Source of the DNA: Candidatus Melainabacteria bacterium 17Bon1m | GTDB lineage: Bacteria; Cyanobacteriota; Vampirovibrionia; Obscuribacterales; Obscuribacteraceae | Reading direction: 5' to 3' | Assembly (NCBI GenBank): GCA_032128875.1 | Contig: JAVLKG010000001.1 | Location: forward strand, 256,001 to 320,000 | DNA: 64,000 nucleotides | Part shown: positions 12,734-15,925 of the stretch, piece by piece | Layout of the letters: each line of letters starts with the position of its first letter | How positions within the stretch are numbered: position 1 is the stretch's first letter | Notes under the pieces: generated by a model | What the model saw: the letters and a program-made list of their open reading frames with translations, nothing else | Database searches by the model: none | Told to the model about the DNA's origin: nothing | Made by a program: the position numbers and the translations under genes

Positions 12734-12837
12734 ATCCCCTCCAGAGGTTGTCGTCGCCTAATCATACTATTTGGTAAGTATTAAGGGGTATTGCATCCGC
12801 AAATCGAACTTCACTTTGCGAAGGAATTTAAAAAAGA

Positions 12838-13056
12838 CTATCTGTCTTTTGAAAGTGAGATTCTGATTCGCAGGTCTAGAGCACTTGCGGTTCTTACAAG
12901 CATCGGAAGTGAGTGTCCTTCATAGTCAGAATCCTCTAGTCGACTTATCACTGACTGGGTCGTACCTGTCAGGTCTGCAAGTCCTTTCTGACTTAATCCT
13001 GCTTCTTTTCGCGCCTCGTAAATCATCACTGCTATTTCAGAACTGAGGCGCTCATT
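12838..13056 (-). pseudogene. 5'-truncated XRE/HTH_3 regulator (HigA-like antitoxin remnant)
   Basis: NERLSSEIAVMIYEARKEAGLSQKGLADLTGTTQSVISRLEDSDYEGHSLPML; family-like sequence extends upstream of the first usable start codon and then meets a stop. Confidence 0.65.
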
Positions 13057-13143
13057 TGATTTAGTGGTTGTTTAGGTCTAGCAATGAGAGGTGGTCGGCC
13101 AGCCTTTCTGGTTGCCTGCAAACATTCGAGAGAGGTCGTGAAA

Positions 13144-13228
13144 TGGCGGAGATGGCATGGACTCGAACCTGCAACGCTTTCGCGCGCCTGTTTTCAAGAC
13201 AGGCTCCTTTCCAATTCGGATCATCTCC
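13144..13228 (-). tRNA. tRNA-Ser(TGA), divergent, CCA encoded
   Basis: GGAGATG/CATCTCC acceptor, CCTGT-CTTGAAA-ACAGG, long variable arm, GGTTCGAGTCC with bulged T-stem, G73. Confidence 0.88.
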
Positions 13229-13233
13229 GTAAT

Positions 13234-13306
13234 TGCCAACGACTGGAATCGAACCAGTTTCGTGCCGTCTTCAGCGGCTCGTGTTGACCACAATCACCAC
13301 ATTGGC
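13234..13306 (-). tRNA. tRNA-Phe(GAA), divergent, no CCA
   Basis: GCCAATG/CGTTGGC, GCCG-CTGAAGA-CGGC, ACTGG-TTCGATT-CCAGT. Confidence 0.85.
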
Positions 13307-13307
13307 A

Positions 13308-13381
13308 TGGCGCGTCGACCTCGATTCGAACGAGGACCAGCAACTTTGGAGGTTGCGCGGCTACCGTTACCTCATCGACGC
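13308..13381 (-). tRNA. tRNA-Trp(CCA), CCA encoded
   Basis: GCGTCGA/TCGACGC, GCAAC-CTCCAAA-GTTGC, CCTCG-TTCGAAT-CGAGG, G73. Confidence 0.9.
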
Positions 13382-13382
13382 A

Positions 13383-13458
13383 TGGAGCACACGAGCCGAT
13401 TTGCACGGCTGCGTAGCGGGGTTGCAATCCGCCGGCTTGCTGTCTTGCCTACGTGTGC
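13383..13458 (-). tRNA. tRNA-Cys(GCA), divergent, CCA encoded
   Basis: GCACACG/CGTGTGC, GCGGA-TTGCAAC-CCCGC, AGCCG-TGCAAAT-CGGCT, U73. Confidence 0.85.
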
Positions 13459-13459
13459 A

Positions 13460-13535
13460 TGGAGCCGTCAGCAGGAATTGAACCCGCAACCAATCGCTTA
13501 CAAGGCGATTGCTCTACCAATTGAGCTATAACGGC
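13460..13535 (-). tRNA. tRNA-Thr(TGT), CCA encoded
   Basis: GCCGTTA/TGACGGC, GCTC-AATTGGTA-GAGC, ATCGC-CTTGTAA-GCGAT, GCGGG-TTCAATT-CCTGC. Confidence 0.95.
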
Positions 13536-13588
13536 GTGTGTTGAACGTCAGATTGTTGAAACCTCGTGAGTTGGTTAGATAAAACAAT

Positions 13589-13660
13589 TGGAGGCAGTAG
13601 GAATCGAACCTACCTGGAGCTGGTTAAAAGCCAGATACATAGCCAATCTGCCATGCCTCC
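13589..13660 (-). tRNA. tRNA-Lys(TTT), no CCA
   Basis: GGAGGCA/TGCCTCC, CTGG-CTTTTAA-CCAG, GTAGG-TTCGATT-CCTAC. Confidence 0.88.
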
Positions 13661-13683
13661 GCAAAAGTTTCTGAAAAAAAATT

Positions 13684-13778
13684 GGGCGTGTGCAACACGC
13701 CCCCACGCTCTGGAAGAGCCGGCTGGAAGCCAGCGCTCCGGCCGATTTAGAAGCGGGCGAGCCGCCGGCGCTCCCAGG
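13684..13778. repeat. Cluster of REP-like elements (families 2 and 3) inside the tRNA array
   Basis: GGGCGTGTGCAACACGCCCCCAC and GCGAGCCGCCGGCGCTCCCAGG; same units at 32924-33029 and 62592-62671. Confidence 0.8.
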
Positions 13779-13783
13779 AAAAA

Positions 13784-13856
13784 AGCCCCTGCCAGGATTT
13801 GAACCTGGACCCTTCTGGTTCGTAGCCAGATGCTCAATCCGTTGAGCTACAGGGAC
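13784..13856 (-). tRNA. tRNA-Arg(ACG), no CCA
   Basis: GTCCCTG/CAGGGGC, GCTC-AACGGATT-GAGC, TCTGG-CTACGAA-CCAGA, CCAGG-TTCAAAT-CCTGG. Confidence 0.93.
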
Positions 13857-13917
13857 AATGCCGGACCTAAAGGCTCAGCTTTGGTCCGGGTTTCTCGGCG
13901 GCCGCCGTAGAAATGAT

Positions 13918-13988
13918 AGCCCACCATCGGATTCGAACCGATATCTCCGCCGTGGCGCGACGGGGTTCTGCCATTGAACCAGGTAGGC
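13918..13988 (-). tRNA. tRNA-Gly(GCC), divergent anticodon loop, no CCA
   Basis: GCCTACC/GGTGGGC, GTTC-AATGGCA-GAAC, CCGTC-GCGCCAC-GGCGG, ATCGG-TTCGAAT-CCGAT, U73. Confidence 0.85.
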
Positions 13989-13991
13989 GAA

Positions 13992-14062
13992 TTGCCACAG
14001 CAGGAGTCGCACCTACACCACTCGCTTATCAGGCGAGCGCTCTACTGTTGAGCTATGCAGCA
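13992..14062 (-). tRNA. tRNA-Ile(GAT), divergent, no CCA
   Basis: TGCTGCA/TGTGGCA, GCTC-AACAGTA-GAGC, CTCGC-CTGATAA-GCGAG, GTAGG-TGCGACT-CCTGC. Confidence 0.85.
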
Positions 14063-14066
14063 CTAA

Positions 14067-14138
14067 TGCCCGATGAAGGATTTGAACCTTCAACCCTCTC
14101 CTTGTAATGGAGTAGCTCTACCGTTGAGCTAACCGGGC
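14067..14138 (-). tRNA. tRNA-Val(TAC), no CCA
   Basis: GCCCGGT/ATCGGGC, GCTC-AACGGTA-GAGC, CTCC-ATTACAA-GGAG, GAAGG-TTCAAAT-CCTTC. Confidence 0.9.
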
Positions 14139-14141
14139 GAA

Positions 14142-14214
14142 TGGAGACTATCGGAATCGAACCGATGACCTTCTCGTTGCAGGCGAGTTGCTCTGCCGTC
14201 TGAGCTTAGTCCCC
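14142..14214 (-). tRNA. tRNA-Ala(TGC), divergent, no CCA
   Basis: GGGGACT/AGTCTCC with G3:U70 identity pair, CTCG-CCTGCAA-CGAG, ATCGG-TTCGATT-CCGAT. Confidence 0.9.
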
Positions 14215-14223
14215 ATGTTTTCT

Positions 14224-14238
14224 CGATTTTCAGGGTGC
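14224..14238 (-). promoter_or_regulatory. boxA-like antitermination motif
   Basis: GCACCCTGAAAATCG, 9 nt before the first tRNA; resembles the G(A/C)ACCTTGAAAA rrn boxA type. Confidence 0.45.
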
Positions 14239-14520
14239 GATGTTTCCGAAGTGAACAGATGAAAGTGCGAAGTGTTCAAAATGAGTATGGGTGAGTTCAA
14301 AAGTTATGCGACTAAATTTTTTCTGACACCTCCCTGCGCTAGAGCGAGCTAGGACAATGGCACCACTAATGGTGACACTGCAGATTAAGAAGCGAATTTA
14401 TTCACACGACGTTGATCGGTCAGCAAAGCTGCGATTGCGCGCTAACGCAAATCAATCAGCAAATGCTTGATCGAAGAATGTCTAGTTATCGGGATTCCCG
14501 TGAATAGAGAGCCTTAAAGA

Positions 14521-14548
14521 CAAAAATGCCTGGGCTCTTTACCCAGGC
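14521..14548 (-). terminator. Intrinsic terminator (attenuator) between leader ORF and tRNA array
   Basis: GCCTGGG-TAAAGAG-CCCAGGC-ATTTTTG. Confidence 0.85.
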
Positions 14549-14590
14549 TCTGCGGAGTTAGATACCAATCAATCTCATCGCATTACTGGG
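14542..14590 (-). promoter_or_regulatory. Antiterminator hairpin, mutually exclusive with the terminator
   Basis: CCCAG-taa-TGCG-atg-AGAT-tgattggt-ATCT-aactc-CGCA-gagc-CTGGG: three nested helices; 5' arm lies in the last leader codons, 3' arm is the terminator 5' strand. Confidence 0.75.
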
Positions 14591-14691
14591 ATTTTCACGC
14601 GCACGTTTGCCGTGCCGCCGCAAAACACTGGACGTCCGGAGTCGGCGCGCCATGTGCGTTTGGTGGTTGAGCAAATAATTGATTTATTCAT
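14575..14691 (-). CDS. Putative 38-aa attenuator leader peptide
   Basis: AAGGTG SD 6 nt before ATG; MNKSIICSTTKRTWRADSGRPVFCGGTANVRVKIPVMR*; stop codon inside the antiterminator. Confidence 0.75.
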   Translation of the reverse strand: MNKSIICSTTKRTWRADSGRPVFCGGTANVRVKIPVMR

Positions 14692-14759
14692 AGTCTGCAC
14701 CTTAGTGTCCTTTATGATCATTAGTGATCATAAAGTCGGCCCGAAGACCGACTAAATTC

Positions 14760-14788
14760 AACATACCACAACACCCCTGACGCCGCAA
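14760..14788 (-). promoter_or_regulatory. Sigma70-like promoter of the leader/tRNA operon
   Basis: TTGCGG-17 nt-TATGTT with extended -10 TG; predicted start near 14753 at a UUCG-capped hairpin. Confidence 0.6.
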
Positions 14789-14791
14789 GAA

Positions 14792-15925
14792 CTATTTTTG
14801 TTTCGTTCTTTCTAATAATGCGTTGTAGTCATCTTGCCACTCAGGCTTCTGAGTGTTTTGCTGTTTCGCTCGCTTATCTACCGCAATATTGTAGATTTTC
14901 AACGCTTCCACATCATCGCGTTTCAGTTCACAAAAGCGCGCCATGGTAATGAACATTCGCTCGCTCTCGTTTGTGCGTTTCAACAATTCGTTTTTGATTG
15001 CGTTAAACGCATCGTATTTCCTTTGTTTTAAAAGGGCGTAAGCCAGCGCAATTTGAACGTCAGTCAATCCGGCATTTTCGTCCGTTAGTTCTTTGATGTG
15101 TGCACTCGATTTTTGCGCATAATCTTCCGCCAGCGAATAGTGCTTAGAACTGTTTGCAATGAGAGCCAATCTGTAGAGCCCAAGCGCAGCACGCACATCA
15201 CCTACGGGCATTTGTTGTGCTTCGCTCGCCAGCTTGTCTAGCGACTTTCCGAATTCTTCTAATGTGTCAACGCTTACATTGGAAGATGGATCTGCTTCGG
15301 GATTTTCTTCGTTAAGAGAGGTGAGCGGATCGCCATACTTCAGTTGCTCGCCATCCGCGATTGACTTGAATTCATCAAGTTGTTTCAGCGCCGCATCGAC
15401 GCCGTCACAGTGTTTCTTGAGCTGCGCAGTGTAATCTTTTGGCACCGTGTTGTTTATAAGCGATTCAATAATCGCTTTGGTATCAGTACTCGTTCCACCT
15501 GCGGTGGCATTTTGATTCTCAATTTCCTTCTCGAAAAATTGCTTGAGCATTTGCGGGCTTCTCGCGTACAATTCCGCGGAGTTTTTCGCGTAGTTCGGAT
15601 CCATAATCAATTCGAGTTGCATTCTGATCAACATCTCTCGAATGATTCGCGCACTCTCATCCGGATGTCCCGCCTTCAACTGCGCAAGAGCATTTTGAGC
15701 TTGCATGGCAGGTGTTGCCGGCACAGATAATGTTGGTCCAGGCGTCGTTTGTTCCGGTGTCGTTTGTTCAGGTGTCGCCGGCTCAGCCGCTGTCGCAATC
15801 GATAAAGCAAACGAGCAATAGAGCAATCCGCAAATCAGAGCCGTCAGTGTGCGTTGTTTGAACCGCATGAATTCTCTCCCGAATGCACAGGGCATCAGGT
15901 AAGAATATAACAAACTCTTCGACAA
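14792..15925 (-). CDS. Secreted helical/TPR-like hypothetical protein
   Basis: Probable start MRFKQRTL (GGAG SD), signal peptide, PEQTT tandem repeat, TPR-like C-terminus. Confidence 0.75.
   Translation of the reverse strand: MSKSLLYSYLMPCAFGREFMRFKQRTLTALICGLLYCSFALSIATAAEPATPEQTTPEQTTPGPTLSVPATPAMQAQNALAQLKAGHPDESARIIREMLIRMQLELIMDPNYAKNSAELYARSPQMLKQFFEKEIENQNATAGGTSTDTKAIIESLINNTVPKDYTAQLKKHCDGVDAALKQLDEFKSIADGEQLKYGDPLTSLNEENPEADPSSNVSVDTLEEFGKSLDKLASEAQQMPVGDVRAALGLYRLALIANSSKHYSLAEDYAQKSSAHIKELTDENAGLTDVQIALAYALLKQRKYDAFNAIKNELLKRTNESERMFITMARFCELKRDDVEALKIYNIAVDKRAKQQNTQKPEWQDDYNALLERTKQK

Follow-up and report, generated by a model that had tools for sequence, protein, structure and literature searches.

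A 64,000-nucleotide (nt) stretch of the genome of Candidatus Melainabacteria bacterium 17Bon1m (the window; positions 256,001 to 320,000 of contig JAVLKG010000001.1, assembly GCA_032128875.1) contains, ahead of an array of 11 tRNA genes, a short open reading frame (ORF) followed by an intrinsic terminator whose 5' arm can pair instead with the end of that ORF. On balance, this unit is probably a ribosome-mediated leader-peptide transcription attenuator, gating the passage from a stable-RNA-type promoter into a spare, diverged tRNA array. The parts of the proposed attenuator, their geometry, their conservation in related loci, and the match between leader codons and array tRNAs are all recognizable in the sequence. 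Every attenuator element of the locus lies on the minus strand of the window, as follows:

14760..14770, minus strand: putative extended -10 element TGTGGTATGTT (TG-G-TATGTT), proposed from its conservation
14735..14752, minus strand: 5'-terminal hairpin GTCGGTCTTCGGGCCGAC of the leader transcript, predicted in a 261-nt fold and kept in main-clade loci
14698..14703, minus strand: Shine-Dalgarno (SD) sequence AAGGTG, 6 nt ahead of the leader ATG
14575..14691, minus strand: leader ORF MNKSIICSTTKRTWRADSGRPVFCGGTANVRVKIPVMR, 38 codons plus TGA (ATG at 14691..14689, TGA at 14577..14575)
14586..14590, minus strand: antiterminator 5' strand CCCAG, in leader codons 34 to 36 (ATC CCA GTA)
14551..14582, minus strand: nested middle helix TGCG/CGCA and inner hairpin around the TGA stop, from predicted folds
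14516..14548, minus strand: intrinsic terminator, stem GCCTGGG, loop TAAAGAG, and CCCAGGC, plus ATTTTTGTCTTT
14548..14542, minus strand: terminator 5' strand GCCTGGG, of which CTGGG (14546..14542) is common to the antiterminator
14541..14535, minus strand: terminator loop TAAAGAG
14534..14528, minus strand: terminator 3' strand CCCAGGC
14527..14516, minus strand: terminator T-run ATTTTTGTCTTT

The terminator that an earlier note had read from the letters alone (GCCTGGG-TAAAGAG-CCCAGGC and a T-run) was recovered at 14548..14516 by a terminator scan, which gave it 8 base pairs (6 G-C); its hairpin energy in the window fold is -14.8 kcal/mol. The alternative partner named in that note, CCCAG of codons 34 to 36 (14590..14586), is exactly complementary to the CTGGG of the terminator 5' arm (14546..14542), and the CCCAG/CUGGG pairing closes a three-helix hairpin around the TGA stop. 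Within it, TGCG (14582..14579) pairs with CGCA (14554..14551), and AGAT (14575..14572) pairs with ATCT (14563..14560). Some form of both nested helices is present in the predicted folds of the window, but the register of the innermost one is not conserved among homologues (79% of cells paired); both are compatible with either outer structure. In the nascent RNA of the window, before the terminator 3' arm has been made, the antiterminator is the unconstrained structure of minimum free energy, at -15.4 kcal/mol. Directly after the T-run lies a conserved AAGGCTC/AGGGCTC, which is able to pair with the GAGCC of the terminator loop and 3' arm.

The same unit recurs in a homologue set of 31 distinct loci, drawn from 29 species genomes of one family and 2 metagenome contigs, all of them within one family of the Obscuribacterales. 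The order of elements is common to all 31 loci: a promoter-like -10 element, 5' hairpin, SD sequence, leader ORF, antiterminator, terminator 5' arm, boxA-like motif, and tRNA array. Upstream and neighboring genes vary from locus to locus. The unit stands immediately ahead of the array and has its orientation throughout; the array is present wherever the contig is long enough (that of locus L044 is too short, and no tRNA is visible). The leader ORF has 33 to 43 codons, and its frame is open in all 31 loci, against 5 for frame +1 and 4 for frame +2. An SD-like motif precedes the chosen start in every locus, although an SD sequence was one selection criterion for the 14 diverged loci. The stop codon is TGA in 31/31 loci, though the preceding codons differ, and it lies 24 to 31 nt before the terminator arm. 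The terminator itself is present throughout and is 100% paired in each of 17 close homologues. Its 5' arm, AGCCTGGGT, is invariant in the 31 loci. The loop UAAAGAG hardly varies within the main clade but gives way to other sequences in the diverged clades, and in the 3' arm an A/G exchange is found at the position that faces the 5'-arm U. Invariance of the arm with two partners, while loop and 3' arm vary, is as a double constraint would predict, which is an argument and not a proof.

That terminator and antiterminator are mutually exclusive, as the earlier note held, is supported by the comparison. An antiterminator helix can be formed in every locus (5 base pairs [bp] in 11, 7 bp in 12, and 8 bp in 8, among them L086), and its 5' strand reads CCCAG, CCCAGG(T), or (A)CCCGGG in 30 of the 31. 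The versions of 7 to 8 bp are each matched by 1 to 8% of shuffles, and judged across the 31 loci the helix does exceed chance. It is the unconstrained minimum of the nascent RNA in 30 loci, the exception being L079, which has a U-U mismatch. The energy of the antiterminator minus that of the terminator has a median of 3.4 kcal/mol (range, 0.3 to 9.5) and is 2 kcal/mol or less in 9 loci; the barrier to refolding is 6.8 to 9.5 kcal/mol across loci.

The spacing of these elements fits control by a ribosome, whose footprint extends about 12 to 15 nt to either side of the P site. Because the antiterminator 5' strand begins 9 to 14 nt before the stop in 31/31 loci, a terminating ribosome would cover that strand and leave the terminator free, whereas a ribosome whose A site had advanced no farther than about codon 30 would leave the antiterminator strand free. 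The geometry thus supports both halves of the earlier proposal, that a ribosome at the stop would favor termination and that an upstream stall would favor read-through.

Constraint acts on the RNA strand and the open frame rather than on the peptide. In the main clade and in L070, L086, and L087, the frame divides the motif CCCRGG as xxC-CCA-GGx (x-Pro-Gly/Val); in L085, L088, and L078 the codons are instead CCC-AGG (Pro-Arg), and in L090 they are CCC-GGG. Leader peptides differ widely between clades, and in the main clade the variability of the three codon positions is nearly equal (39, 37, and 48 extra states); these properties, together with the use of CCCRGG in two frames, argue against a constraint on the peptide. 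The peptide has no Pfam match. An antibiotic-type (erm-type) arrest peptide as the sensor is unlikely, since the peptide is not conserved across clades, and the unit differs from the antibiotic-responsive leaders of ABC-F/hflXr-type genes with which the earlier note had compared its geometry: there is no conserved arrest peptide, and what follows is 11 tRNA genes with no resistance gene. The middle helix is 91% paired and contains one covarying pair in the main clade (CG in 9, UG in 4, and UA in 2), and the diverged clades form middle and inner helices from other sequences with the same architecture.

The genes downstream of the terminator, and two conserved elements of the interval of about 300 nt that separates them from it, are as follows:

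13144..14215, minus strand: array of 11 tRNAs, Ala(UGC), Val(UAC), Ile(GAU), Gly(GCC), Arg(ACG), Lys(UUU), Thr(UGU), Cys(GCA), Trp(CCA), Phe(GAA), and Ser(UGA)
14220..14239, minus strand: boxA-like motif CGCACCCTGAAAATCGAGAA, from the spacer alignment, ending 5 nt ahead of the first tRNA
14452..14471, minus strand: conserved spacer hairpin ATCAAGC...GCTGAT, from the spacer alignment, in the terminator-array interval

Two of the aragorn tRNA calls were corrected by the register of the anticodon stem, that of the first tRNA also by its G3:U70 pair. Except for Ser(UGA), each anticodon of the array recurs in at least one gene outside it (default aragorn, 68 tRNAs in the genome), and a second Ser(UGA) gene is seen only at a relaxed aragorn threshold. 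No other tRNA of the genome exceeds 77% identity to any tRNA of the array. Judged from these sequences, the array is a spare, diverged tRNA set resembling an L-array. At the diverged loci, arrays have 17 to 26 tRNAs, including Leu, Met, Tyr, Glu, and Asn, and in some cases Asp, Pro, His, or Gln.

The codons of the leader match the tRNAs of the array that follows. Under strict wobble rules, 26 of the 37 codons of the window leader are read by array tRNAs, against 0.39 for a background of 23 long ORFs of the window (P = 1.2e-4, binomial); under relaxed rules, in which U34 reads four-fold boxes, the count is 30 of 37 against 0.52 (P = 2.4e-4). The excess is specific to the reading frame: the array-read fraction in the window is 0.70 in frame and 0.41 and 0.34 off frame, and pooling of 20 loci gives 499/738 codons in frame and 357/693 and 323/683 off frame. 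Leaders also fit their own arrays, in that among all permutations of arrays over eight clade representatives the own-array excess is reached by 84 of 40320 (strict) or 66 of 40320 (relaxed). Trp codons are present in 27 of the 31 leaders, with 0.38 expected, and Cys codons in 30, with 0.26 expected; L031, which has the only complete array without tRNA-Trp, has a leader without Trp. Leaders of the diverged loci contain residues of the extra tRNAs of their arrays. Codons do not form tandem runs; about ten amino acids are sampled, mostly one to four times each, and the window leader has no codon for Leu, Glu, His, Tyr, or Gln. Between specific sensing of tRNAs and general sensing of translation stress, which the earlier note had left as alternatives, the codon statistics lean toward sensing matched to tRNAs and codons and do not settle the matter.

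A direct repeat, AGATCA, occurs just ahead of the start codon and again at codons 3 to 5 (Arg-Ser) in many leaders; it is seen at L005, L013, and L070 to L094 and has decayed to AAATCA in the window. The leader AGA tends to co-occur with an array tRNA-Arg(UCU).

From these features we infer a mechanism that includes translation of the leader, the promoter proposed above, regulated termination, and a particular signal. RNA polymerase would start at about 14753 and transcribe the 5' hairpin, the SD sequence, and the 38-codon leader; as the terminator 5' arm emerged, its CUGGG would pair with the CCCAG of codons 34 to 36, making the antiterminator the lowest-energy nascent fold. Under smooth translation, a ribosome at the TGA would cover CCCAG together with the 5' strands of the nested helices, the freed arm would form the 8-bp terminator, and transcription would end within 14527..14516, leaving the array off. 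If the ribosome were held earlier (A site at about codon 30 or before), or if none had loaded, the antiterminator would form first and delay the terminator long enough for the polymerase to clear the T-run, after which it would meet the boxA-like element and transcribe the array. Since CCCAG has no consistent upstream partner across 13 of the 31 loci, an untranslated leader should also read through. The signal would most likely be slow decoding of array-read codons, at times when the matching charged tRNAs were short or damaged, because leaders are enriched for these codons and contain Trp and Cys codons almost universally. The new array tRNAs would then restore translation of the leader and shut the system off.

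It is conceivable, and we suggest it tentatively, that the leader serves as a "test translation" of the codons of the array and that the unit as a whole is a homeostat of decoding capacity. Depletion of, or damage to, any of the matching housekeeping tRNAs, for example through anticodon nucleases of competitors, phage-triggered defense, or toxins, would stall the ribosome in the leader and cause the diverged spare tRNAs to be made; as decoding recovered, ribosomes would reach the TGA and the array would be turned off.

Several results weigh against an attenuator of this kind. The complete window RNA prefers the terminator by 6.1 kcal/mol, with a terminator probability of 0.996, and in equilibrium folding the naked RNA always adopts the terminator, so that only kinetic arguments are usable and the window antiterminator, by these models, can act only kinetically. 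The barrier to its refolding into the terminator is 7.6 kcal/mol (findpath estimate), and a rough Arrhenius estimate puts its lifetime at tens to hundreds of milliseconds, which would be only marginally long enough. The window version is among the weakest antiterminators of the family: in 60% of mononucleotide shuffles the 9-nt terminator arm can form a helix of at least 5 bp with the 24 nt that precede the stop, and the 5-bp helix of the window alone is no better than chance. Among the 17 close homologues, the outer helix shows no compensatory double change, only one-sided changes that preserve pairing by wobble; its covariation is not significant (112 of 500 shuffles reach the observed percentage paired), and RNAalifold predicts the terminator, not the antiterminator, from a 202-nt alignment. 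The antiterminator that the earlier note proposed is not competitive at equilibrium in the window but is the preferred nascent fold in 30 of 31 loci, and its helix is conserved in every locus. Across 13 of the 31 loci, there is no conserved 1:2 protector hairpin or consistent partner for CCCAG, whose probability of pairing upstream is 0.03 in the window and lies between 0.00 and 0.93 in the set; inside the leader, RNAalifold predicts only a 4-bp helix. Over 12800-15300, three RNA-labelled runs from one sample assemble into the large contigs of the DNA run (7.9 kb and 9.3-19.3 kb), with a depth as flat as in that run, and say nothing about transcripts, 3' ends, or read-through. Promoter control like that of TrcR in Anabaena may be the main switch, possibly coexisting with the attenuator, and a second promoter, serving the array, could be concealed in the boxA-like motif. 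The codon match has weak points as well. Enrichment at individual loci of the diverged clades is modest (P from 0.007 to 0.84), with none in L085 (28/42 against 0.68) and P values of 0.2 to 0.4 in L090 and L091. Derived single-nucleotide codon variants are array read in 29 of 64 cases against 23.0 expected (strict) and in 40 of 64 against 33.1 under relaxed wobble, an excess too weak to use; moreover, because of the kinship among the loci, the P values assume more independence than exists.

These weaknesses in the codon match are among the points that would favor the same switch with a generic sensor, in which any slowing of translation (by antibiotics, ribosome shortage, or poor initiation) would uncouple the ribosome from transcription and cause read-through, the codon content being incidental or loosely tuned. 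The geometry would work equally for any stall before about codon 30, or with no ribosome, as no protector helix was found across 13 of the 31 loci, and the L-array of Anabaena is induced by general translational stress according to the available text of PMC8421152 and PMC10272220. A generic sensor is nevertheless somewhat unlikely in view of the frame specificity of the enrichment, the better fit of leaders to their own arrays than to others (84/40320 permutations), the near universality of Trp and Cys codons, and the AGA at the leader start, which accompanies array tRNA-Arg(UCU), if imperfectly.

The structural weaknesses would be expected if there were no regulation at all, the leader being a small independent gene or a nonfunctional ORF with a constitutive terminator, the array being transcribed from its own promoter within the spacer, perhaps at the boxA-like motif or close to it, and the CCCAG/CUGGG pairing having no role. 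Chance-level pairing in the window, a terminator strongly favored at equilibrium, nonsignificant covariation, a conserved motif only 5 nt ahead of the first tRNA, and RNA-labelled runs that give no evidence of read-through are all in keeping with such a locus. Chance would not readily place the pairing at a fixed distance from the stop in 31/31 loci, with 7 to 8 bp in 20 of them and a nascent minimum in 30, nor would an independent gene be expected to encode so poorly conserved a peptide (39/37/48) without a Pfam match or to stay upstream of and co-oriented with the array while its neighbors change. The motif ahead of the tRNAs, furthermore, also occurs inside the transcribed leaders of transfer-messenger RNA (tmRNA) and 16S rRNA, downstream of their promoters, and we consider the absence of regulation improbable. 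Least probable is that a trans-acting factor sets the balance, be it an RNA-binding protein, an uncharged tRNA acting as in a T-box, or a small RNA, by acting on the invariant AGCCUGGGU and the conserved loop. Strict invariance of the terminator arm, near invariance of the UAAAGAG loop in the main clade, and the use of TGA as the stop in 31/31 loci could reflect such a factor; however, at the gathering score Rfam gives only tRNA, and no T-box, in the window and 17 related loci, the loop differs in diverged clades, and an SD-led conserved ORF and a fixed distance from its stop to the antiterminator strand are explained by a ribosome and not by this model.

A ribosome-mediated attenuator, the reading we favor, has close counterparts among known systems. 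In the classical attenuators of enterobacteria (trp, his, and the multivalent thr and ilvGMEDA), a short SD-led ORF is likewise followed by an intrinsic terminator (textbook knowledge; see also the available text of PMC1183508). There, too, the antiterminator uses the 5' arm of the terminator, the stop is placed for masking by the ribosome, and leader codons report on a supply that the downstream genes serve. The trp antiterminator is weaker than its terminator and acts by forming first, as is proposed for the window. Unlike these attenuators, the window system would regulate tRNAs rather than biosynthetic enzymes, its leader lacks tandem runs of one codon, and a boxA-like element follows the terminator. 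Also unlike them, it has no conserved 1:2 protector or pause hairpin (13/31 loci), so that absence of translation should give read-through and not superattenuation.

In Anabaena sp. PCC 7120, the trn operon, or L-array, is subject to promoter repression by way of direct repeats and the ribbon-helix-helix (RHH) repressor TrcR, as described in the available text of PMC8421152 and PMC10272220. That array likewise consists of spare, diverged tRNA genes (PMC8421152, available text), in the cyanobacteria, to which the non-photosynthetic lineage considered here is related, and likewise is expected to be expressed only under translational trouble. By eye, the -10 region of the window (TGTGGTAT, 14770..14763, minus strand) is identical at 7 of 8 positions to the TrcR site TGTAGTAT that overlies the -10 box of the Anabaena trn operon (PMC10272220, available text). 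The difference is that here a leader ORF and a terminator/antiterminator lie between promoter and array; the words leader and terminator and the stem attenuat- have 0 occurrences in the available text of the two Anabaena papers, supplements excluded.

Antibiotic-responsive attenuators with upstream ORFs (bmrCD, PMC4191407; mef/mel, PMC4335068; erm, PMC8274638; available text of each) resemble the proposed system in that a stall on a short upstream ORF prevents the terminator and switches on a stress-relief gene. They differ from it in that the leaders considered here diverge freely, with CCCRGG in two frames, and the targets are tRNAs and not a resistance protein. T-box riboswitches similarly couple the state of a tRNA to the choice between terminator and antiterminator, but the present system has no Rfam match to them, its sensing would proceed via a translating ribosome and not by direct binding of tRNA, and it would act on tRNA genes where T-boxes control genes for synthetases or biosynthesis.

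The motif ahead of the array has relatives in other stable-RNA leaders of the same genome. Its core, ACCCTGA.AA..GA, is common to the array spacer, the tmRNA leader, 27 nt ahead of the gene itself (Rfam tmRNA, 119.5 bits; G000:C1:953814), and the 16S rRNA leader, where it lies about 60 nt downstream of a TTGACA-17-TATGAT promoter (L096, ~1395-1415). We take it to be related to the boxA of stable-RNA leaders and call it boxA-like, its function being presumed by analogy only. In contrast to boxA-type antitermination in rRNA-operon leaders, the motif here is downstream of the regulated terminator, so the decision to terminate would precede any modification of the polymerase. Its presence fits a spacer transcribed from upstream, and the spacer alignment contains no conserved -10-like element between the terminator and the first tRNA.

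Ahead of the unit, the -10 element is kept in a form like GTTGTGGTATGTTG in main-clade loci despite differing upstream genes and is the sole promoter-like element conserved there. A consensus promoter scan called no sigma-70-type promoter on either strand of 13000-15000; it did not call the proposed -10 because there is no good -35, and it neither supports that element nor reveals a promoter in the spacer. The proposed promoter and the 5' hairpin show a likeness to the 16S rRNA promoter region, where a similar hairpin follows the promoter; the pairwise alignment is weak, and the likeness is not relied on. Between the 5' hairpin and the SD sequence is a perfect 10-bp palindrome, TTTATGATCA / TGATCATAAA (14711-14734, minus strand), which is confined to the window locus and its closest relative, L002, where it is imperfect; it holds an upstream in-frame ATG that would extend the leader to a 48-codon ORF, which is not conserved elsewhere.

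Within the array, tRNA-Ala(UGC) (14141-14215, minus strand) has C33 instead of U33, as does tRNA-Val(UAC) of L015, and both are therefore called Cys by aragorn; L019 and L045 have a tRNA with an 8-nt anticodon loop, given as "gtca" in the aragorn output. A short multicopy repeat (13675-13783) lies between tRNA-Arg and tRNA-Lys. Its contig depth is 5 to 20 times that of its flanks, with many joints and loose ends, and it holds a terminator-like hairpin (13702..13684, minus strand); in relatives the Arg-Lys gap ranges from 3 to about 750 nt. Directly after the array is an ORF for a 63-residue HTH_3 (XRE-type) protein (12838..13029, minus strand; Pfam E = 3.5e-8). As a local regulator it was rejected, since it was not found after the arrays of other loci for which flanks were available.

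The homologue set was assembled by several searches. Searched at the DNA level, 41 related genomes yielded 15 with the leader region, among them 11 of the 12 that belong to the same genus. An exact scan of species genomes with a degenerate terminator pattern gave 23 matches, of which 14 were the attenuator element, from entries titled as Obscuribacterales or Melainabacteria metagenome-assembled genomes and one labelled Planktothrix sp.; the other 9 were rejected as plain hairpins, in other phyla or elsewhere, without leader or tRNAs. The same kind of scan over metagenome contigs gave 17 matches, 8 of them genuine and 2 of these new, and 9 that were rejected as plain hairpins lacking leader and tRNAs. 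A covariance model built on a 94-nt region matched in 30 of 107 genomes of the order and added 14 diverged loci from other genera of the same family; one match within the order, L084, was rejected as false. In 150 other genomes sampled across the phylum, the model found no true copy, the 4 matches being rejected as plain terminators without tRNAs. It finds one copy in the host genome, where the other tRNA clusters, C3 (~1,008,000) and C4 (~286,300), have no comparable leader or terminator upstream.

The reasons for long arrays of spare tRNAs, and what triggers them, have been explained only in part. TrcR ties one such array of Anabaena to translational stress (available text of PMC8421152 and PMC10272220), but the way in which the stress is sensed is still open. 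An attenuator that sampled the codons of its own array would be a direct and self-correcting sensor of decoding capacity. A full-text literature search returned no paper describing a leader peptide or attenuator ahead of a tRNA array; if the proposal is true, leader-peptide attenuation would be known for a tRNA operon for the first time, and L-arrays would gain a defined trigger. The 31 natural variants are ready controls: their helices span 5 to 8 bp, some of their leaders have a Trp codon and others none, and their arrays range from 8 to 26 tRNAs. Such a system would extend a textbook mechanism from the supply of amino acids to the supply of tRNAs.

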